A stretch of DNA of 11,792 nucleotides from Candidatus Bathyarchaeia archaeon (GTDB taxonomy: Archaea; Thermoproteota; Bathyarchaeia; Bathyarchaeales; Bathycorpusculaceae). The notes below the pieces were generated by a model. It did not search any database. It saw only the letters and a list, made by a program, of their open reading frames with translations, and had not been told where the DNA came from. Of the stretch, positions 2,665 to 11,454 are shown one piece after another. A program made the position numbers and the translations under genes. The first letter of the stretch is position 1. Every line of letters starts with the position of its first letter. The DNA is taken from assembly GCA_038883775.1 (NCBI GenBank), contig JAVZLM010000015.1, positions 1 through 11,792 on the forward strand. Direction: 5' to 3'.

Positions 2665-3978
2665 CTATTCAAGGAGCAGAGAGACAGGACCAGCCTTCCA
2701 GGCTTCTATGGCGGCTTTCAGTTCCGGGTGTTGCTCAGCATACTGTTCCAGTATGGTCTTATTCATTGCGGCTTCTATTGCTTGCCTAAAGGCTTTCGCG
2801 CCAGCCCTTGGCCCCATCGGATGCGCGTGAATGGCTCCGCCGGCTCCTATGGCTATGTCTGTGCCTAGATCGCTTATAAGCTGTGGTACGTGGAGCTGAG
2901 TTATTCCGCCAGAAGGCATGGGAAGTGTGGGCTTAATGTTGTGCATCGGGAAAAGCATGGTTTTGCCAGTTTTCAAGTACTTCTCCCTTAAGAAGAAGGG
3001 TTGCTTACCATAAGGCGCTGGATAAACTAGTATGTCTGCACCAGCGAGTCTTGGAAGCTTCGCCAAAGTCAAGTGGGAGGACATGCCCGACTCTGGGTCC
3101 TCATAAATGGCTCCAGCGAAGTCCATGTGGCCTAAAATTGGAACCTTTATGCTTGGATCTTCGGCTAAAGCCTTTAAAACGCCTATGCCGGCTACTAGAT
3201 GATTAACCATTATGGCATTGGCTCCAAGCTCTATGACTTTCTCTGCAAACTCGAAGATTTTCGGCGCGTCTGCAGTCACATTTATCGTGTACATTTTCTT
3301 TTCTCCAGTTTCTTGAGCCGCTCTGTCAACGACCTCCATGTACTTTACGATTCTGCCTTCCACCGTGTTAAAGGGTGCGTTGGCTAAGAGCTCGTCGTCT
3401 TTAACGAAGTCTGCGCCGCCTACCAAAGCCTCATATGCAAGTTTTGCGCCGACCTCTGGTGGATAACCAGTACACGGCTTAATCATGTTGTTAAGTATTG
3501 GTCTCTTATCAATTTTCAAATATTTCCTTAAGCCTTGAACCCCAAATTTTGGTCCCTTAAACATTTCAAGATAGCTTTTTGGGAAAGCTAAATCAACAAG
3601 TTTCAGTCTTCCAGCCATGGAAATGTTGCCGATAACAGTTGTTAAAAGCATTGAAATTTCATTCATAAAATTCTCGTAGGGATAAGCTATCTGAACAATG
3701 TATCGCCTCAGCTTTACGTCTACTGGAACTTCATACTCGAAGTCCGGAATCTCGTTTATGGCGATTACTTTGGCTATGTGTTTTTTCCGCAAATCAACAG
3801 TTTCGCCTGGAACACGGATCCACGTTCCAGTGCTTTGTTCAACAGCCACAGCCATGGCAATTTTGTCAATTGGCCAGTCTCTTGGTATAGCTGCATAATA
3901 CGTGGCTATCACATATTTATCGTAATCTACTCCTTCTGGAAGAGCTGTTGGAAGAGCTTCAATATTCTCTTCTGTCAT
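2665..3978 (-). CDS. RuBisCO-like protein (form IV RLP), 437 aa, resembling the Archaeoglobus fulgidus-type RLP
   Basis: Motifs AVEQSTGTW, IGNIS, MIKPCTG, FVKDDELL, GHMDFAG, YPAPYGK, PMPSGG, GGAIHAHPMG. KDDE is intact but the carboxylase motifs KPK, HRA and IHxGT are altered. Start moved from TTG 3996 to ATG 3978, which follows a GTGGTGA RBS. Confidence 0.95.
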   Translation of the reverse strand: MTEENIEALPTALPEGVDYDKYVIATYYAAIPRDWPIDKIAMAVAVEQSTGTWIRVPGETVDLRKKHIAKVIAINEIPDFEYEVPVDVKLRRYIVQIAYPYENFMNEISMLLTTVIGNISMAGRLKLVDLAFPKSYLEMFKGPKFGVQGLRKYLKIDKRPILNNMIKPCTGYPPEVGAKLAYEALVGGADFVKDDELLANAPFNTVEGRIVKYMEVVDRAAQETGEKKMYTINVTADAPKIFEFAEKVIELGANAIMVNHLVAGIGVLKALAEDPSIKVPILGHMDFAGAIYEDPESGMSSHLTLAKLPRLAGADILVYPAPYGKQPFFLREKYLKTGKTMLFPMHNIKPTLPMPSGGITQLHVPQLISDLGTDIAIGAGGAIHAHPMGPRAGAKAFRQAIEAAMNKTILEQYAEQHPELKAAIEAWKAGPVSLLLE

Positions 3979-3991
3979 GAATTCACCACTT

Positions 3992-4023
3992 TTCAATAAT
4001 TAATTATTGAAGCATGTAATAAA
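3992..4023 (-). promoter_or_regulatory. Putative internal promoter for the RLP gene: TATA-like TTTATTA (4023-4017) and a perfect 20-bp palindrome TTCAATAATTAATTATTGAA (3992-4011)
   Basis: The palindrome was read directly from the sequence. It lies between the TATA-like element and the RBS, over the expected transcription start. Confidence 0.6.
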
Positions 4024-4047
4024 TGCATACCTTTGAGTTTCGTAAAA

Positions 4048-4584
4048 TTATAAGTTAGTGGATTTGCTTCCAAATTCCTCAAAACTTACAATTTCTGACA
4101 GCTTTTTCCTTCTTCTCACCAAATGAAGGATTTTCCCTGTAAGGTTTAATTTTTCACGCGGATAGCCAACAGCCAATAAAGCAACAACTCTATATTTTTC
4201 CGGAATTTTTAGCAACTTTTTAACTTCATCTTCGTTGAAGCTTCCAACCCAGCATGTTCCCAGTCCTTCGCTTGTAGCTGCCAAAACAATGTTTTCCATT
4301 GCAATTGCAACATCAACTGTGAACCATTTTGGAGAAGCCTTCTGATCGCCGCAACCAACAATTACTACTGGAGCTTCTGCTAGGAACTTAGCCCATCTAG
4401 TCTTCGCTAATCTCTCGCGTTTCTCAGTGTCTCTTACGACAATAAAGTGCCAAGGTTGAATGTTGCCCGCAGAAGGTGCCAATCTTCCTGCTTCAAGAAT
4501 TTTCATAAGCTTTTCTTCCGGTAGGGGTGTTGATTCATAAGCACGGATGGAATGTCTTTTTTGAATGGCTTCAAACGTGTTCAA
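4048..4584 (-). CDS. Nitroreductase-family FMN-dependent oxidoreductase, 178 aa
   Basis: AIQKRHSIRAY, GRLAPSAGNIQPWHFIVV, DVAIAMENIVLAATSEGLGTCWVG and LLAVGYP are canonical nitroreductase motifs. TTG start 20 nt after the FGGY stop. Confidence 0.95.
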   Translation of the reverse strand: MNTFEAIQKRHSIRAYESTPLPEEKLMKILEAGRLAPSAGNIQPWHFIVVRDTEKRERLAKTRWAKFLAEAPVVIVGCGDQKASPKWFTVDVAIAMENIVLAATSEGLGTCWVGSFNEDEVKKLLKIPEKYRVVALLAVGYPREKLNLTGKILHLVRRRKKLSEIVSFEEFGSKSTNL

Positions 4585-4604
4585 AGCTTATCCCAACACT
4601 AATT

Positions 4605-6158
4605 TTAACTTGCTTTCATGTTGAGTCTACGATACATTTTTCTATTGTTCTTGTAAATGTTTTGAAATTCTCTAAAAATTTCCTCGTAAATATGAGCGTT
4701 TTTGGGGTTTGGCTCATGAACCTCATCAATTTTGACAAGTTTTTCGGCTTCTTCAAAGCTTTTAAGGTAACCTAAAGCAATCATGGCTATCACTGCAGCT
4801 CCTTTAGCACCAGCCTCTTTCGAATCACTGACTCTATTTATGTTTCTGTTCATGACATCTGCGAAGATTTGGCACCAAACGTTGGACATGGCGCCTCCGC
4901 CTATGATGTTTATGCTTTCAACTTTTCCTGCAAGCTTCTCCAGGTAGAATAAAGCCCACTTCATGTTTAGGGCTACGCCTTCAAGCACTGCCCTAACCAT
5001 GTGCTCTCGTGCGTGTTCGAGGCTGAGATTGTGAAAGCCTCCCCTAACCGTTGGATCGTCAAGTGGCGCTCTTTCACCGAAAAGCCAAGGCGTAAATATT
5101 AAGCCTTCAGCGCCTGGCTTAATTTTTGCAGCCATCTCGCTGAAAAGTTTGTAGACTTCTTCTCGGCTTTCCTTAAACATTGTGTTTTTAAGCCAGTCTA
5201 AGCATGCTCCAGCCGTTTCTTGTTCCGCTACGCATAAGTACATGTCTGGGTTTGCACTGCAAATGCAGCCGATATAGTGAAACAAGTCCTTTTTTCTCTC
5301 TGATAGGTGGCAGCCAAGCCAGCCACTTGTTCCAACGTAAGCGTGGATTTTTCCCTCTGTCACAGCGCCGGAGCCTATGGCGGCTGAAGTAACATCGCCA
5401 GCTCCAACAATCACAGGTGTGCCTTCACATAATCCCATTTCTGCAGCTGCTTCCGGCTTGAGTTTGCCGGCTATATCTGTTGCCTTCATTATTTCTGGAA
5501 GTTTAGCTCTGTCTATTCCATATTTTTTGAGGATTGCGTCCGACCAGTTGAATTTCCCCTTTCGTGTATCCATCATCCACCAAATGTTGGCGTAGTCTCT
5601 GCTTATTACGGGTTTTCCAGTGCACTTTAAAATCAAGTAGTCTTTGCAGTCTAAGAACTTGTAGGTTTCAGCGTAAATTTTCGGCTGTTCTTCCTTAACC
5701 CATAAGATTTTGCATAGGGGGTCTTTTCCCGCGTGCCCGTAAATTCCGCCGGTTATGCTTAGAAACTTTATGAGGGTAAGTAGCCCGTATCCTGCAATTT
5801 TTATAATTCCGCGACTCATTTTTTCCGCTTGCTCTTTAGCTCTTGTGTCAAGCCATATCATACATGGCATGAGGGGTTCGCCGTTGCTGTCCACCGGCAA
5901 TGTGCCAGACATTTGCGTTGCAAACACGATGGCGGTAATGTCCGAGGGCTTAATATTTGCCTTTTCCAGAAGCGCCTTTGTGGTTTCGGTGACTGCGTTC
6001 CACCAGTCTGATGGCTTCTGCTCGGCATATCCACTTTTTGGATAGTATACCGAGTATTCTGCCGAGGCATATCCGACTATTTCGCCGTCTAACTGCACAA
6101 GCACAGCCTTGTTACTCGTTGTACCAGTGTCATGAGCGAGAATATATTTATCTTTCAA
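4605..6158 (-). CDS. FGGY-family carbohydrate kinase (xylulokinase-like), 517 aa; substrate unknown
   Basis: AHDTGTTSNKA, AEQKPSDWW, WLDTRA, GAGD, GTSG, PWLFGERAP, RAVLEG, IGGGA. TTG start overlaps the upstream stop (TTGA, 6158-6155), suggesting translational coupling. Confidence 0.95.
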   Translation of the reverse strand: MKDKYILAHDTGTTSNKAVLVQLDGEIVGYASAEYSVYYPKSGYAEQKPSDWWNAVTETTKALLEKANIKPSDITAIVFATQMSGTLPVDSNGEPLMPCMIWLDTRAKEQAEKMSRGIIKIAGYGLLTLIKFLSITGGIYGHAGKDPLCKILWVKEEQPKIYAETYKFLDCKDYLILKCTGKPVISRDYANIWWMMDTRKGKFNWSDAILKKYGIDRAKLPEIMKATDIAGKLKPEAAAEMGLCEGTPVIVGAGDVTSAAIGSGAVTEGKIHAYVGTSGWLGCHLSERKKDLFHYIGCICSANPDMYLCVAEQETAGACLDWLKNTMFKESREEVYKLFSEMAAKIKPGAEGLIFTPWLFGERAPLDDPTVRGGFHNLSLEHAREHMVRAVLEGVALNMKWALFYLEKLAGKVESINIIGGGAMSNVWCQIFADVMNRNINRVSDSKEAGAKGAAVIAMIALGYLKSFEEAEKLVKIDEVHEPNPKNAHIYEEIFREFQNIYKNNRKMYRRLNMKAS

Positions 6159-7384
6159 GGCCCTTTAACCAGCGATTCCAAACTTAACCGGTGAACTTTG
6201 CCGTCCTTATCGATGTGCTCAACGAGTATGGGCAAGCCTACAGTTCCGCCTATTCTTATCTTCTCTTTGGCAAGTATAAATAACTCAACTGGGTTTACCG
6301 CGGCTTCAGGTGGAAAAACGCCCTTCAGCTTTATCTTTCCCATAGCCATAAGCATAGTTCCCAAAGTAGCGGGCACGCCCGTGCCTTCCCGCATACCCAT
6401 GCCCCTCGAAGCCATCGAGAAAACATACGTGCTTGGCTGGCCTTTCTTCTTGCCCTTAACAACTATTTTTAGGCATCCCATAGGCTCGGTTATCCCAGCC
6501 TCCTTCAAAAGTTTAGGTCTCTGATGCAAAGCAAACGCTACTGCAAAGTCTATGGGCACAATCTTCTTTCCATCAACTTCTATAGGCTCCTCATTTGTCA
6601 TTCCCAGACGCACAATGCCTTTGATGAGTTCCGCATAAGCCGGAGGCAAAACCAAACCAAGGTTTGTAACGCGACGTACGCCCTTAATGTACCTTGGAAG
6701 CGTTATCGTTTCCGGATGGGGATAGGCATAGACTTTGTACGTTCCGACATCTACAAACTCAACATCCTCTTCTAAGGCTTTACCGCTTTCCTCCAAAACC
6801 TTAACAGTTTTAAATTCTCCATGGAGAAAAACTGGAACCGGAATTATCATTGAATGAATCCTATGCTTAACAACAGCTGGTCCTTCGGCTTCTTCTCCTC
6901 CATGAGCATGGTAAATGTCTATGGCTTCAACTTCGTCCAGGAGCATGTCGGCGCAAAATCTGACGAGAACGTTTGCAACTCCTGGGGAGCTGCCCATGCC
7001 TATAAGCGCTGAAATTCCAGCCATTTTGGCTTCCCTATCCATCTTTAAAAGAGCCTCTGTTGCATCGACATCATCACATATGTCCACGTGGTTCACTCCA
7101 GCTTTGATGGAAGCTCTTAGGACTATTGGTGCAAACTTGTAGAAGGGGCCTACACAACTTAGTATAACATCAGAACCCTTAATTGCTTTCTGCAATTTAT
7201 CCGAGTCTGTAACGTCAACCTTAACCACCGACACTCCTTTGACACCGATTTCGGAAGCAAGCTTTTTCGCCTTCTCAAAGGCAACATCGCCTATGACAAC
7301 TTCAGAAAATATTCCGCTCGAGGCGAGAATTTTTACAGCCATGCTTCCAATAGTTCCAGCTCCACCCAAAACAGTAACCTTCAC
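6155..7384 (-). CDS. Saccharopine dehydrogenase / lysine 6-dehydrogenase-family NAD(P)-dependent oxidoreductase, 409 aa
   Basis: Rossmann motif VLGGAGTIG with acidic IGD at the end of beta-2; SCVGPFYKF, HVDICDD, GMGSSPG, YPHPETITLP, GVFPPE. GTG start after GGTGTGA. Confidence 0.9.
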   Translation of the reverse strand: MKVTVLGGAGTIGSMAVKILASSGIFSEVVIGDVAFEKAKKLASEIGVKGVSVVKVDVTDSDKLQKAIKGSDVILSCVGPFYKFAPIVLRASIKAGVNHVDICDDVDATEALLKMDREAKMAGISALIGMGSSPGVANVLVRFCADMLLDEVEAIDIYHAHGGEEAEGPAVVKHRIHSMIIPVPVFLHGEFKTVKVLEESGKALEEDVEFVDVGTYKVYAYPHPETITLPRYIKGVRRVTNLGLVLPPAYAELIKGIVRLGMTNEEPIEVDGKKIVPIDFAVAFALHQRPKLLKEAGITEPMGCLKIVVKGKKKGQPSTYVFSMASRGMGMREGTGVPATLGTMLMAMGKIKLKGVFPPEAAVNPVELFILAKEKIRIGGTVGLPILVEHIDKDGKVHRLSLESLVKGP

Positions 7385-7498
7385 AACTCACACCAACCTT
7401 TTCAGAAATTAGTGTTTCAGCTTTAGATTATTTAGCATTTATGGAAAGCCCGAAAAACAGCAAAACATATCAATGCAAAGACTACAAACAAAAGAAAC

Positions 7499-8743
7499 AT
7501 GGAAAAACCAGAAGCGTATTCTTACCGTTGGGTTGTCCTGCTCACATATATGCTTGTGGCAGTTGTTTCCCAAATACTTTGGCTAAACTTCGCTCCAATA
7601 ACAAGGCCAATAATGACATCCATATTCGGAGTAACGGAATCCGATGTTGGACTCCTATCAATGGTTTGGCCTCTACTCTTCATACCAGTCTCCATTCCAG
7701 CTGGAATACTCATCGACAAAAAAGGTTTCAAATTCGGAGTTTCAGTAGGCGCTCTAATAATGGCGATTTTCGCTGTTTTAAGAATCTTTTCCAGAGAAAA
7801 CTTCACAGTGCTTCTTTTCTTCCAATCCTTTGCGGCACTGGGTCAACCTTTCGTTTTTAACGCCATATCAAAACTTGTGACCTTATGGTTTCCTTTTGAA
7901 GAACGGGCTTTAGCCACGGGAATCGGGATAATGGGTCAATACATTGGAATGATAGTGGCTATGATGCTTACACCGTTTCTTGTGCCAACATCAGACATCA
8001 CATTGTTGACAAACATGCTTGTAATTTACGCCGTAATATCTGTAATAGGCGCTATGCTTTTCATAGTATTGGCTAGAGAAAAACCAAAACTATCCCGGGA
8101 TGAAGCCTCAAGAGAAGAAGTTAAGGCATCCATTTCACTTAAAGACATTAAGGGTTTCTTTGGACAAAAGGATTTCATGATCCTTGAAGCCCTATTTTTT
8201 ATTGGAGTTGGACTTTTCACAGCCCTGCTCACATGGCTGGAAACAATCTTAAACACGCACGGGTTAACAGCCACAGATGCTGGGTTGATTGGAGGAATAA
8301 TAATAATCGGTGGAATTTTTGGGTCCATGGCAATTCCGGGACTTTCGGACAAGACTGCGAAGAGGAAGACCTTCATAATTATGGATTTGGCTGTTGCCGC
8401 AGCCATGCTCTTCTTTTTAGCCGAAACAAACAATTTCCTAATTTTGGCTGTGGTGGGCTTTATTTTGGGATTTTTCCTCATGTCAGCCTTGCCTATAGGC
8501 TTAGAAATGTCAGCAGAAATTGTGGGCTCAGCATTGGCTGGAAGCGCATCAAGCTTCCTTTGGCTTTTCTCCCAAGCTGGTTCAGTAATCTTCATTCTGT
8601 TTATGGATGCTGTTAAATCCGCCACAGAAAGCCTTTACCCGTCAAACCCATACTATCTCTCAGTCATATCCATATTCATATTCGACATAATCGCCCTAGC
8701 ACTCTGCTTACTCCTAAGGGAGACAGCGAAAATCAAGGGCTAA
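7499..8743 (+). CDS. Major facilitator superfamily transporter, ~12 TM, SLC49/FLVCR-like
   Basis: Motif A-like GILIDKKGFK and GLSDKTAKRK, N-terminal YRWVVL, WFPFEERALAT, two hydrophobic halves. Divergent from the dehydrogenase gene across a 114-nt gap. Confidence 0.93.
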   Translation: MEKPEAYSYRWVVLLTYMLVAVVSQILWLNFAPITRPIMTSIFGVTESDVGLLSMVWPLLFIPVSIPAGILIDKKGFKFGVSVGALIMAIFAVLRIFSRENFTVLLFFQSFAALGQPFVFNAISKLVTLWFPFEERALATGIGIMGQYIGMIVAMMLTPFLVPTSDITLLTNMLVIYAVISVIGAMLFIVLAREKPKLSRDEASREEVKASISLKDIKGFFGQKDFMILEALFFIGVGLFTALLTWLETILNTHGLTATDAGLIGGIIIIGGIFGSMAIPGLSDKTAKRKTFIIMDLAVAAAMLFFLAETNNFLILAVVGFILGFFLMSALPIGLEMSAEIVGSALAGSASSFLWLFSQAGSVIFILFMDAVKSATESLYPSNPYYLSVISIFIFDIIALALCLLLRETAKIKG

Positions 8744-9429
8744 ATTCTGAAAACTTTAAACTTGCTCTTAAGTGCCTCCAAATCTATGCTTCCAATCTTA
8801 GATTGCAACTTCTTCTTTAAGGCTTCCCAGCTTACAGCATCATGTCCAGCAAGCAGTGTGGCAACAAACTGAACTTTCGCACATTCCTCCACCATCCTGT
8901 TTAGAAGACAAGCCTCCTCAATTGATGAGCCAACAGCAATAATGCCATGATTCTCCAAAATAACGGCATTAAAATCCCTAATCATCTTTTGAACAGCTTC
9001 AGCCAACGCCTTGGAACCTGGCAACTCAAAAGGCACTATGGGAACCCCATTTGGGATATACAAAAACATTTCCACCTGCAATGGAATTATCTCAGTTCCA
9101 GCAATCCCAAAAGCCGTGGCAAACGGAGCATGCGTATGAACAACCCCTTGAACATCACTTCTAACACGGTAAATCGCAGTATGCAATGGCGTCTCTATCG
9201 AGGGAACCAAATCACCCTCAACTCTATTTCCATCCAAATCGACAACTATGAAATCCTCAGGCTTCAAAAAACCCATAGAAACACCTGAAGACTTTATCAA
9301 AACCCTATCTGTTCCAGGAATGCGCACACTTATATTTCCTTCTGACCCGACCACGAGGCCATGGTTGTATAAAAGCTTGCCAACGTTCACCATTTTATCT
9401 CTTACAACGCAAATGATATCTTCTTCCAT
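8740..9429 (-). CDS. Class II aldolase/adducin-family metalloenzyme (FucA-like), 229 aa
   Basis: GSEGNISVR, KSSG, PSIETPLH (catalytic Glu as in FucA rather than Asp as in AraD), HTHAPFATA and LENHG (three metal-binding His), PFELPGSKALA. Stop overlaps the convergent MFS stop (8740-8743). Confidence 0.93.
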   Translation of the reverse strand: MEEDIICVVRDKMVNVGKLLYNHGLVVGSEGNISVRIPGTDRVLIKSSGVSMGFLKPEDFIVVDLDGNRVEGDLVPSIETPLHTAIYRVRSDVQGVVHTHAPFATAFGIAGTEIIPLQVEMFLYIPNGVPIVPFELPGSKALAEAVQKMIRDFNAVILENHGIIAVGSSIEEACLLNRMVEECAKVQFVATLLAGHDAVSWEALKKKLQSKIGSIDLEALKSKFKVFRI

Positions 9430-9611: not shown

Positions 9612-11454
9612 GTGAAAAACTCAATTTTTGCGATGGTTTTGGGTTTAACGTTAGTTGGTCTATTGATTTTGATACAGAGTATAAATCCTGTCTTGGTGGG
9701 GAGCAGCAAAAGTGATGGAAAACATGTTGCAGAAAACACTATCAAGTTAATCTTAGGAACTGATAAGGATGTCTATATTTTGGGGGAAAATATTTCTATA
9801 ACTCTTAAGAATGTCGGCGAGGAAAAAGTAAGCGTAGGGGGTTATCCACCTTGGCAAATATTTACTTATCCAGATGAAGAACCTGTATATCCAAAGATTT
9901 TCGCTTTTTTAGCATGGTTCCTGGACAAAGCGACACATATGTCTGGAACCAATACAACGATTTTACAGGGGCGTTTTGCAAGCCTGGAAAGTATGTTATT
10001 AAGGATACGCAAGGATGGAATTTATCCGCATACTTTGAGATTGTTCCGATGGGAGTAAAAATAATTAACACGGGAGTTCTGGGGATGGCACCAAAGGTTT
10101 ACGGCGATATTATAACATTTTTTACTGATGAAAAATTGGCTGACGAAGATCTGAACGGTGATGGAGAAAGGGATGATTTAATTATCAGATATTATAACAT
10201 TACTTCGCAAAGTCTAATTAACACTGAGGTAGTAGGGCATTACTCTGCAATATATAAAAACATAATCACCTTTACAGGCTTAACCGTTAAATATTTCAAT
10301 CTTACAAGCAGAAGTCTTGTGAATACTGGTGTTTTGGCTTTCGTTGACATTCCTTCAATTTATGGAAGCATAATAGCCTTCCCAACTTACGAGATAAACG
10401 GGGCATGGATTTGAATGGAGACGGAGACAAAGACGACTCTGTAATTAGATACTATGATATTTTAACAGGAGCCCTCACCAATACCAAAAATGTCGGATTG
10501 GGCGCATCCATCTACGGGGAAATAATAGCCTTCTCAACTTTTGAGTGGCAAGCTGGTCAAGACCTTAACGGCGACGGTGACATGGACGATTCTGTAATCA
10601 GATACCTCAACATAACGTCAGGAACCACGGTGAATACACGGGCTGAAGGATGGTGGCCTACGATATACGGGAACATAATAGCTTTTGAAGCTCTTTACAG
10701 CGCATACACAGCTATTACATACTACAATATTTCTGATGGTTCGTTAGTTGACACGAAGATAGACGGACGCATGGCATGCGTATATGAAAACTTGATAGTA
10801 TTTTCAACTCCAGAGGCTGATTTTGGAGTTGGAGATCTCAATGGCGACGGAGACTGTGAAGACTGGGTGGTTAGATATTATGATATTTCAACCAAGACTT
10901 TAGTCAACTTAGGAGCGGAGGGAACCAGTCCATCCATTTATAAAAATGTCATCACCTTTGAAACATATGAAAAAGACGCAGGAAAAGATCTTAACAACGA
11001 TGGAGACATGGATGACAACATCATTCGATACGCCCTGCTCAGTTCACCTCAAGTTGAAGCTTCTGTTAAAATTTCTCCTAAAGCTTTAAATCTCCTAAGT
11101 AAAGGTAAATGGGTAACTGCTTCAATTGAACTTCCAGAAGGATACAAAATTGCGAATGTAAACGCCTCAACAATCTTGTTAAACGACAGTATTCCAATAG
11201 ATGTTAACGCACCCATAACAATAGGAGATTATGACAATGATTCCATTCCAGATCTAACAGTTAAATTCGAAAGAGCCAAAATCATGCAATACATTCACGC
11301 AAACATAAACATAAAAGAACTATCAAAGCGGTTTATGACAATAACATTAACCATAACAGGCAAACTCAATGATGGAACAACATTACAAGGAAGCGACACA
11401 GTTAAGATAATAATGCCAATGCCAAGGTACACCAGATTCATCCACTTCTACTAA
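9612..11454 (+). pseudogene. Single secreted/cell-surface protein gene (~615 aa when repaired) split into three ORFs by two -1 frameshifts: signal peptide, Ig-like domain, DxNGDG repeat region, C-terminal beta domain
   Basis: ORFs 9612-10058, 9914-10414 and 10405-11454 join into a continuous protein: ...AFLAWFLD/PGQSDTYVWNQ... near 9919-9926 and ...PTYEIN/GMDLNGDG... at 10400-10403. The same repeat unit continues across the second junction. GTG start after AGGGAG. Confidence 0.85.
10148..11016 (+). repeat. Five DLN(G/N)DG(D/E)xxD Ca-binding-type loops in repeats of the form IYGxIIAFxTxE...DLNGDGD.DD.VIRYY (probable beta-propeller blades)
   Basis: Copies start at 10148, 10408, 10561, 10834 and 10987, with two intervening units lacking the loop. 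A further DYDNDSIPD loop lies in the C-terminal domain. Confidence 0.85.

Follow-up and report, generated by a model that had tools for sequence, protein, structure and literature searches.

Organization of the locus

The subject of this analysis is a RuBisCO-like protein (RLP) and the genes that surround it in a Bathyarchaeia archaeon (assembly GCA_038883775.1; 1.69 Mb, 28 contigs, 91% complete). The window, which is the whole stretch of DNA analysed, is the entire 11,792 nt contig C15 (JAVZLM010000015.1) of this genome. A first-pass annotation, prepared from the sequence and its predicted open reading frames (ORFs), had described positions 2665–9429 as a candidate six-gene catabolic cluster for an amino-polyol or amino-alcohol. 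All six predicted ORFs were confirmed in the sequence, on the strands and at the positions first noted.

Four of the genes follow one another on the minus strand. The first encodes an NAD(P) oxidoreductase of the saccharopine/carboxyspermidine dehydrogenase family, referred to below as the dehydrogenase (6155–7384), and its Pfam matches lie above the cut-offs but are weak (PF03435, 56.9 bits, cut-off 25.1; PF16653, 47.2 bits, cut-off 31). It is followed by a XylB-like FGGY sugar kinase (4605–6158; PF00370, 184.7 bits; PF02782, 111.3 bits), a small flavoprotein of the nitroreductase family (4048–4584; PF00881, 140.8 bits), and the RLP itself (2665–3996), a form IV protein of an uncharacterized clade that belongs to the RuBisCO superfamily by both domains (PF00016, 186.8 bits, cut-off 30.1; PF02788, 51.7 bits, cut-off 20.7). 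The dehydrogenase and kinase ORFs share 4 nt (6155–6158), and 20 nt separate the kinase from the nitroreductase. The next spacing is the 69 nt originally reported if the RLP starts at the ATG at 3978, and 51 nt if it starts at the upstream TTG at 3996. The ATG is the likely start, giving a predicted protein of 437 amino acids, because a GGTGA motif precedes it and homologues measure 436–437 amino acids. The nearest homologues of the window RLP carry Bathyarchaeia labels.

The two remaining genes lie on the other side of the dehydrogenase. An MFS transporter gene (7499–8743, plus strand; PF07690, 132.6 bits) is divergent from the dehydrogenase gene, and the 114 nt AT-rich intergenic region between them (7385–7498), as read from the sequence, is presumed to be a shared promoter region. 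The MFS gene converges, with a 4 nt overlap, on a gene for a class II (zinc) aldolase-family protein (8740–9429, minus strand; PF00596, 178.4 bits). Rfam and tRNA scans found no Rfam family and no tRNA in the window.

The RLP and its predicted active site

Few functions of RLPs have been established, and the majority of form IV clades have none assigned. A passage in a 2024 paper on Chloroflexota describes the functions of form IV proteins as not fully understood (PMC11650866). The window RLP scored below the cut-off of both MtnW models (NF007095, 344.2 bits against 409; TIGR03332, 293.6 against 513.6), of the form III model TIGR03326 (287.7 against 497.45) and of NF042437, the model for OiaX, a 3-oxo-isoapionate-4-phosphate decarboxylase (191.9 against 700). 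MtnW/YkrW, the methionine-salvage enolase that acts on 2,3-diketo-5-methylthiopentyl-1-phosphate, supplied both the best NCBIfam model and the best solved structure, 2oek from G. kaustophilus (E 5.2e-72, 247 bits). The structure 2qyg, which we take to be related to the Rhodospirillum rubrum-type (DeepYkr) RLP, scored lower (201 bits). In a phmmer alignment, Lys98 of 2oek, presumably the catalytic general base of G. kaustophilus MtnW, corresponds to Asn124 of the window RLP, and Asn124 is invariant in 28 members of the clade.

Judged by these scores, the RLP lies outside every characterized clade that could be tested; the placement in an MtnW or Oia clade that would have spoken against the first-pass annotation was not seen. 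We rejected a role as methionine-salvage enolase on account of the scores below cut-off, the replacement of Lys98 by Asn and the wrong gene context. Metagenome sources routinely label members of this clade 'methionine salvage enolase' or 'RuBisCO', and neither label is right for these genes on the present evidence. A second RuBisCO homologue was not found in the source genome.

As an active-site reference, two Bathyarchaeia form III RuBisCOs that pass TIGR03326 (551 and 564 bits) were aligned with the clade; the residue numbering and roles used below are those of RuBisCO. The RLP retains the equivalents of E60, T65, W66, N123, K175, K201, D203, E204, H294, K334, S379, G381, G403 and G404, and is substituted at K177 (to C), R295 (to M), H298 (to A), H327 (to V) and T173 (to N). 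An extra Asp (Asp292), invariant in the clade, sits just past the His equivalent to H294. Our reading of this alignment is that the Mg/carbamate site, with Lys199 as the carbamylated residue, the enolization machinery and the proximal phosphate site are probably intact, and that the distal phosphate site has probably given way to a pocket that is mostly hydrophobic and has gained a single acidic residue. Such a pattern fits a monophosphate substrate that carries its phosphate beside an enolizable carbonyl and has a phosphate-free tail. More speculatively, Asp292 might bind an ammonium group. The retention of the K334, E60 and N123 equivalents makes carboxylation or decarboxylation a possible reaction for the RLP.

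MtnW resembles the window RLP in its RuBisCO large-subunit fold, its KDDE Mg/carbamate motif and the loss of the distal-phosphate residues. The two differ in that MtnW has Lys98 where the window RLP has Asn124, and Ser in place of the K334 equivalent that the window RLP keeps. They also differ in their partners, which here are an FGGY kinase and an amine enzyme rather than mtn genes.

Other types of RLP occur in Bathyarchaeia. Two of these (L092, on G014:C8, and L093, on G073:C4) are 39–42% identical to the window protein, have different active-site motifs (LKPPTG and MKPKLG) and pass no curated cut-off; NMIKPCTG and GG[AG]IHAHP are the motifs that define the clade of the window RLP. Most other Bathyarchaeia matches score like these two or like form III, and two that were tested pass the form III cut-off.

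A kinase–RLP pair with an adjoining amine enzyme recurs across phyla

A profile built from 28 RLP homologues was used to scan one genome per prokaryotic species. At least 535 relatives were confirmed, spanning Chloroflexota, Actinomycetota, Bacillota, Bathyarchaeia, Thermoprotei and Asgard archaea, among others. The best 80 loci of these relatives, with their flanks, were combined with the window to give a neighbourhood set of 81 loci. Neighbours within 6 kb of the RLP were counted by tblastn of the 81 loci with the window proteins and with neighbour proteins taken from the loci.

An FGGY kinase lies near the RLP in 71 of the 81 loci; at 50 of them the two genes share a strand and are no more than 150 nt apart, the kinase as a rule standing immediately upstream. 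Seven of the ten loci that lack a kinase have less than 1.4 kb of DNA upstream of the RLP; the other three (L026, L069 and L080) have room for one, yet are kinase-less. An amine-handling enzyme stands beside the kinase–RLP pair in 64/81 loci, namely the dehydrogenase in 34 and a class-III aminotransferase in 31, with both present at one locus (L078). Many anaerobes of both domains share the pair and its adjoining amine enzyme, with representatives in Bathyarchaeota, Thermoproteota, Hadarchaeota, Chloroflexota, Actinomycetota, Bacillota and Cryosericota, among others. The position of the amine enzyme varies: some lineages have it upstream of the kinase, others have it downstream of the RLP.

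Conservation thus extends to three genes, dehydrogenase–kinase–RLP, and not to all six. Because this core arrangement recurs across many phyla, it is not a product of chance. Outside the window, the full six-gene order is seen in close relatives only, with an RLP identity of 89% or more, and the idea of six genes forming one conserved operon was rejected, since only the dehydrogenase, kinase and RLP recur. The cluster as first drawn thus survives as a three-gene core, and the nitroreductase, MFS and aldolase genes are not widely conserved within it. The first-pass annotation had proposed a neighbourhood analysis, and co-occurrence with the RLP held for the dehydrogenase and the FGGY kinase and failed for the MFS and aldolase genes, which were found mostly in close relatives. 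Within the window's own class, 107 of 251 genomes have a RuBisCO-superfamily match and only 3/251 have one of at least 55% identity; co-occurrence there is uninformative because the clade is so rare.

The kinase scored 362.3 bits against the XylB model TIGR01312 (cut-off 380.25), which makes it a member of the FGGY family just outside the XylB equivalog. Its best match in the PDB was the xylulose kinase 2itm (E 1.3e-55). Five distant RLP-linked kinases likewise fell below the XylB cut-off (332–358 bits), with the FGGY gluconokinase model in second place. To judge by these scores, the RLP-linked kinases are a consistent subfamily that is XylB-like but not XylB. The autoinducer-2 (AI-2) kinase model matched the window kinase with 183.9 bits (cut-off 528), and the related structure 5ya0 was detectable. 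No other PF00370 match was found in the source genome.

Three non-orthologous enzymes occupy the amine-enzyme position

The nearest structures to the window dehydrogenase were 4ina (E 2.5e-23) and the carboxyspermidine dehydrogenase 8deb (E 9e-21). Carboxy(nor)spermidine dehydrogenase/synthase is its nearest named relative, a family whose chemistry is the NAD(P)-dependent formation or cleavage of an imine that joins an aldehyde to an amine. The window protein is not a member of the carboxynorspermidine synthase/dehydrogenase family NF043000 (49.4 bits, cut-off 800), and, unlike in carboxyspermidine systems, no carboxyspermidine decarboxylase was seen among the annotated neighbour clusters. An ESM Atlas search with the dehydrogenase returned generic family names only. 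Since the family match is weak, the case for an amine substrate is drawn from the interchange of this enzyme with transaminases and not from its sequence.

Clustering of neighbouring ORFs revealed a class-III aminotransferase (PF00202) at most loci that lack the dehydrogenase. These aminotransferases fall into two subfamilies, which are 22–24% identical to each other in alignment. The first, at 10 loci, resembles HemL, the glutamate-semialdehyde aminomutase (NF000818, 294–322 bits, cut-off 398; best PDB match 4e77, E 9e-66), and the second, at 18 loci, resembles GabT and other omega-transaminases (best PDB match 7vno, E 3.6e-58). Two aminotransferases are singletons, that of L078 and that of L042, which lies 5.4 kb away on the opposite strand and is probably unrelated to the module. 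The aminotransferase of L059 is cut by a contig end, and is included in the count of 31 and left out of the subfamily counts.

The distribution of the amine enzymes was mapped on a quick IQ-TREE tree of 80 RLP rows, from which L013 was dropped as only 329 amino acids were available. Rows were labelled dehydrogenase (33), GabT-like (18), HemL-like (10), and none or ambiguous (19). At least nine changes on the RLP tree are needed to account for the three states, and seven when the dehydrogenase is set against any aminotransferase; these counts describe the pattern and are not a statistical test, because related rows are not independent. Swaps are seen between sister lineages, as between L022 and L027 in Thermoprotei, and between L011 and the Bathyarchaeia clade. 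A further swap involves L076, within an aminotransferase-bearing clade of Dehalococcoidia.

Three non-orthologous enzymes thus fill one slot, and the chemistry they share is amine/carbonyl interconversion. The family of the dehydrogenase and both transaminase types mostly act on terminal amines and aldehydes. There is a precedent in the epsilon-deamination of lysine, in which L-lysine 6-dehydrogenase or lysine 6-aminotransferase performs the same terminal amine-to-aldehyde step, so that either an NAD enzyme of the saccharopine dehydrogenase family or a class-III transaminase will serve; the partners in the module described here are of sugar type. The 'amino' step of the first-pass annotation gains independent support from these results, as unrelated class-III aminotransferases replace the dehydrogenase where it is absent.

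Further paralogues of the saccharopine dehydrogenase family were seen in two of the genomes surveyed (G255 and G253, the genomes of L042 and L071). Each has 3–5 more of them, 27–42% identical to the window protein and located away from the RLP.

The dehydrogenase occurs only with the RLP in sampled Dehalococcoidia

The reciprocal association was examined in a sample of 201 Dehalococcoidia genomes, with thresholds of E≤1e-120 for the RLP clade and E≤1e-80 for the dehydrogenase. The RLP was present in eight genomes and the dehydrogenase in six, all six of which also have the RLP, and the spacing between the two genes is about 50 nt in 6/6 carriers. The dehydrogenase was found in none of the 193 genomes that lack the RLP (E≤1e-80). 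Of the two RLP genomes without it, G268 has a HemL-like aminotransferase 85 nt from the RLP and G352 has one on another contig; an orthologue of this aminotransferase was not found in the two dehydrogenase genomes that were checked (G251 and G309).

Because every Dehalococcoidia carrier of the dehydrogenase holds the RLP and no RLP-less genome has it, this dehydrogenase subfamily appears to be dedicated to the RLP module. The linkage of dehydrogenase, kinase and RLP originally proposed for the window is therefore confirmed as tight and repeated, both in the 81 loci and in the Dehalococcoidia. One Dehalococcoidia contig (G437:C21:5793-15810) holds two equal-scoring RLP–dehydrogenase pairs, inverted and about 5 kb apart, which may be an inverted duplication or an assembly artefact.

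Accessory genes of the window and of related loci

A nitroreductase gene between the kinase and the RLP is found in the window and at two other loci only (L009 and L012; 3/81), and is a lineage-specific insertion. The protein fell below the cut-offs of the BluB model (102 bits against 150) and of the NfsA- and NfsB-type models (62–66 bits against 223–227), and is perhaps an aldehyde or enone reductase. We rejected it as the core redox partner because of its 3/81 occurrence, and the proposal that it recycles NAD(P)H for the pathway proved unfounded as a core role. Flavoproteins of the nitroreductase or FMN-reductase kind recur loosely near the RLP, at 12/81 loci.

Transporters of the window's MFS type were likewise detected near the RLP at 12/81 loci, these being the window, nine close relatives, L044 and L067. 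The NCBIfam matches of the window protein, all under cut-off, were TIGR00903 ('MFS transporter') and carriers of the anions D-galactonate, L-lactate and phosphoglycerate. The gene probably encodes an importer, accessory to the module in this Bathyarchaeia lineage. It had been suggested to import an amino-polyol; with anion transporters as the best family matches, a carboxylate would fit better.

The aldolase gene lies near the RLP at 13/81 loci, comprising the window, nine close relatives (RLPs at least 89% identical) and three other loci (L051, L071 and L079) from two Actinomycetota and one Cryosericota. Recurrence in the latter two phyla weakly favours a link to the module. The protein belongs to the class II aldolase/adducin family by its PF00596 score, and its PSxE, HTH and NHG motifs, which we take to hold the metal-binding His residues and the catalytic Glu, align with those of 6btd (the best PDB match, E 7.5e-30) and 4c25. 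It scored under every equivalog cut-off, with PRK06557 the best (160 bits, cut-off 251), followed by OtnC (131/250), archaeal FucA (125/250), ribulose-1-phosphate aldolase (117/300) and MtnB (85/137). No other PF00596 gene occurs in the source genome.

This aldolase is a possible exit step for the pathway or a separate enzyme for the salvage of S-adenosylmethionine (SAM) by-products. As the genome's only class II aldolase it could serve that salvage, and it may equally belong to an MtnP–MtnA–aldolase route for SAM by-products and stand here by chance. The cleavage step assigned to it in the first-pass annotation is thus retained as a possible exit, qualified by its presence at 13 loci only and by this second candidate role.

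Several other kinds of gene were found around the RLP in the 81 loci. TetR or MarR regulators occur within 6 kb at 15 loci and an MFS transporter of any type within the same distance at 16. Neighbours also include acyl-CoA dehydrogenases (7/81), a DUF401 membrane protein (5/81) and HAD hydrolases (3/81). A protein of about 120 amino acids that consists of the HMG-CoA-reductase N-terminal domain only (PF25653) is encoded next to or near the RLP at 7/81 loci from three phyla (L022 and L026, at both of which it lies about 60 nt past the RLP, and L035, L040, L043, L053 and L056), and is absent from the window. Individual loci have a Zn-alcohol dehydrogenase (L040) or a GNAT acetyltransferase (L053) between kinase and RLP, a DUF2848 protein and a carbon–nitrogen hydrolase downstream of the RLP (L011), or a carbamoyltransferase (L019). 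The Zn-alcohol dehydrogenase, the acetyltransferase and the carbon–nitrogen hydrolase hint at polyols or amines, each from a single lineage; the L040 alcohol dehydrogenase translation also matches DNA in L049 and L067, the position of those matches being unrecorded.

A proposed catabolic role for the module

The best-supported conclusion of this study concerns an orphan RLP clade, which acts together with a XylB-like kinase and an amine–carbonyl enzyme in a module found in both domains. We propose, with a probability of roughly one in two, that the module is an inducible catabolic or salvage route for a sugar-like compound of about C4–C6 bearing a primary amine. The amine would be converted to a carbonyl, in the source genome by the NAD(P) dehydrogenase, and the FGGY kinase would phosphorylate a terminal hydroxyl. 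The RLP would then bind the monophosphate through its proximal-phosphate and Mg-carbamate sites and rearrange it through an enediolate, by isomerization or possibly by carboxylation or decarboxylation. The bathyarchaeon may have extended this route with the MFS importer and with the aldolase, which would split a ketose-1-phosphate into dihydroxyacetone phosphate (DHAP) and an aldehyde.

The dedicated kinase implies a free, not yet phosphorylated substrate, and the repressors, transporters and dedicated kinase together suggest an inducible route that breaks down or salvages a free compound; it is from these that we infer the catabolic direction. An exit to DHAP would make sense because no transketolase N-domain was matched in the source genome, although at 91% completeness the absence of transketolase is not shown. 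Ribulose-phosphate 3-epimerase gave a marginal partial match (24.9 bits). Compared with the pathway first sketched for this DNA, an RLP pathway with an amine-to-carbonyl step stands, and the six-gene unit and the recycling of NAD(P)H do not; its order of steps and its suggested substrates, aminopentanetetrol, ribitylamine, serinol or opines, stay hypothetical.

A number of observations weigh against this proposal. The dehydrogenase matches Pfam only weakly and falls roughly 800 bits short of the carboxynorspermidine synthase model. Moreover, a clear single amine enzyme is missing within 6 kb for 19 of the 80 tree rows; truncated contigs are among these, and three loci (L026, L068 and L072) have none despite 10 kb on both sides. 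The retained K334, N123 and E60 equivalents mean that the RLP reaction may not be a simple isomerization. The MFS protein best matches anion carriers, and an acid would suit these better than would a cationic amino-polyol. Neither the MFS gene nor the aldolase gene is conserved beyond close relatives, and even the close relative L009 has DHH-family and V4R-domain proteins where they would be. With MtnA and MTAP encoded in the genome, SAM by-product salvage is another possible place for the aldolase. Finally, HAD phosphatases at 3/81 loci leave a biosynthetic direction open, and class-III transaminases are used on sugar phosphates in biosynthesis.

Alternative explanations

A module running in the biosynthetic direction is possible but, in our view, unlikely. 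A free ketose or polyol would be phosphorylated, rearranged by the RLP and then aminated to an amino-polyol phosphate, for example a lipid head group, a compatible solute or an iminosugar precursor, which a HAD phosphatase would dephosphorylate in some lineages. Such a route would resemble the biosynthesis of 1-deoxynojirimycin, which uses a transaminase–phosphatase–dehydrogenase set. Gene order leaves the direction unfixed, as the amine enzyme may lie upstream of the kinase or downstream of the RLP, and both the HAD hydrolases and the Zn-alcohol dehydrogenase of L040, with its matches in L049 and L067, would suit biosynthesis. PlsY and fatty-acid-type genes also flank the kinase–RLP pair in seven Dehalococcoidia-type loci, but these loci all belong to a single related group. 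Biosynthesis would usually begin at a central sugar phosphate and need no kinase, and the TetR/MarR repressors (15/81) and MFS carriers (16/81) fit inducible catabolism better. The clade is also patchy (3/251 Bathyarchaeia and 8/201 Dehalococcoidia genomes), unlike a housekeeping pathway for a lipid or cofactor.

A bolder and rather doubtful reading is that the RLP clade is a true carboxylase, decarboxylase or C–C lyase acting on an amino- or deoxy-pentulose monophosphate, and the module a previously unknown route for amine-bearing sugars. It is suggested by the retention of all the residues that serve RuBisCO in enolization and in the stabilization of a carboxylated intermediate (equivalents of E60, N123, K175, K201, D203, E204, H294 and K334), together with the replacement of the distal-phosphate site by a hydrophobic pocket and a clade-specific Asp. 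If it were true, anaerobes of more than 10 phyla in both domains would consume an amine-bearing sugar, and three deamination enzymes would have been recruited independently. That RLPs can decarboxylate is evident from the D-apionate pathway. To our knowledge, D-apionate catabolism is the only described catabolic cluster in which a dedicated kinase feeds an RLP (OiaC/OiaT) on a sugar-acid monophosphate; its kinase belongs to the DUF1537 family, it has no amine step, and the window RLP is far below the OiaX cut-off.

It is improbable that the module is a variant of SAM by-product salvage, dealing with 5'-methylthioadenosine or 5'-deoxyadenosine. The RLP would act on a 5-substituted ribulose-1-phosphate, as the R. 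rubrum RLP does, the aldolase would be that of a DHAP shunt, and the kinase would rescue dephosphorylated pentulose. The R. rubrum-type RLP is the 5-methylthioribulose-1-phosphate 1,3-isomerase of the 5'-methylthioadenosine–isoprenoid shunt. It offers a plausible mechanistic model for the window RLP, with an enediolate-mediated carbonyl migration on a ketose monophosphate that has a non-phosphate tail. The source genome can make the ribulose-1-phosphate-type precursors that the R. rubrum-type route needs, for it encodes MtnA (390.7 bits, cut-off 279) and MTAP (285.6 bits, cut-off 274.85). The first-pass statement that mtn genes are missing consequently holds for the window and not for the genome. 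No mtnK, mtnB, mtnX or mtnD gene was found near the RLP, and beyond MtnA and MTAP no methionine-salvage gene was searched for genome-wide.

Other features agree with a salvage role. The window aldolase is the sole class II aldolase of the genome, and its best solved relative, 6btd, is titled 'fuculose phosphate aldolase' in the PDB and is, we presume, the 5-deoxyribulose-1-phosphate aldolase DrdA. The window protein is thus closest to the aldolases of the DHAP shunt and 5-deoxyribose salvage, with the His motifs and catalytic Glu aligned, and its likely chemistry is the same cleavage of a ketose-1-phosphate to DHAP and an aldehyde. The closest characterized relatives of the RLP are methionine-salvage enolases, and its predicted distal pocket is hydrophobic, with M, A, V and C replacing R, H, H and K. 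However, the conserved partners, an FGGY kinase and a terminal-amine dehydrogenase or class-III transaminase, are foreign to known salvage routes. The R. rubrum-type pathway needs no kinase and has no amine step, and the DHAP shunt and 5-deoxyribose salvage operate without an RLP, an FGGY kinase or an amine enzyme. The catalytic Lys98 of MtnW is Asn in the window RLP, mtnA and mtnP lie on other contigs, and the aldolase is absent from 68/81 loci. The DeepYkr-type structure 2qyg also scores below that of MtnW (201 against 247 bits).

We give still less credence to a route that detoxifies or uses a reactive dicarbonyl sugar, for instance a compound like 4,5-dihydroxy-2,3-pentanedione. Here an LsrK-like kinase would trap the compound as its phosphate, the RLP would enolize the 2,3-diketo-1-phosphate, and the carbonyl would then be aminated or reduced. 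The RLP is nearest to enolases of 2,3-diketo-1-phosphates, and the AI-2 kinase is an FGGY member and a detectable relative of the window kinase. Flavin reductases or nitroreductases (12/81) and TetR/MarR regulators (15/81) are typical of electrophile-stress operons. Against this, the kinase matches XylB with 362 bits and the AI-2 kinase with 184 (cut-off 528), the RLP lacks the MtnW base Lys98, detoxification does not usually proceed by amination, and LsrG- or LsrF-like genes were not seen among the annotated neighbour clusters.

That the six genes share no pathway, and adjoin by chance or shared ancestry only, is very improbable. Common descent could explain the six-gene order, which is limited to the window and relatives with an RLP identity of at least 89%, and so perhaps the presence of the nitroreductase and, in part, that of the MFS and aldolase genes. 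For the three-gene core this reading is contradicted, because the core recurs across phyla with rearranged gene orders and repeated replacement of the amine enzyme, and its dehydrogenase occurs only with the RLP in the Dehalococcoidia sample.

Novelty and significance

Our literature search, which did not extend to subscription-only papers and supplements, found no description of an RLP with an FGGY kinase or xylulokinase or with a saccharopine dehydrogenase; in keeping with the first-pass annotation, no pathway joining an RLP to this dehydrogenase family was found in the searchable literature. The module is probably a new RLP-based sugar-phosphate pathway, with a new set of partners and probably a new reaction. 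A fixed kinase combined with three interchangeable amine enzymes gives a sharp handle on the substrate, which should be a compound accepted by all three. Solving the module would add a new reaction to the RuBisCO superfamily, and would correct the carbon- and sulfur-cycle inferences that are drawn from these genes in sediment metagenomes.

Remaining features of the window

Beyond the aldolase gene, positions 9612–11454 hold three plus-strand ORFs (148, 166 and 349 amino acids) without a Pfam match, the first two overlapping; the 349-amino acid ORF has a single sub-threshold match to a beta-propeller repeat. The approximately 1.15 kb between 1509 and 2664 has no ORF of at least 80 amino acids, no Rfam match and no tRNA, and contains one weak 18 nt direct repeat and one weak inverted repeat. 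At the contig end, an open ORF on the minus strand (1–276) has an N-terminal motif (LIPSENV...) like that of serine hydroxymethyltransferase, and is presumably the start of glyA. The plus-strand gene at 531–1508 encodes a 325-amino acid protein with weak winged-helix matches (HTH_24 and MarR_2; E ~1e-4) and no NCBIfam family. This gene is not kept beside the RLP in close relatives, three of which (L003, L005 and L006) have a radical SAM/SPASM gene, a ThiS-like gene and an aldehyde:ferredoxin oxidoreductase gene at the same position.

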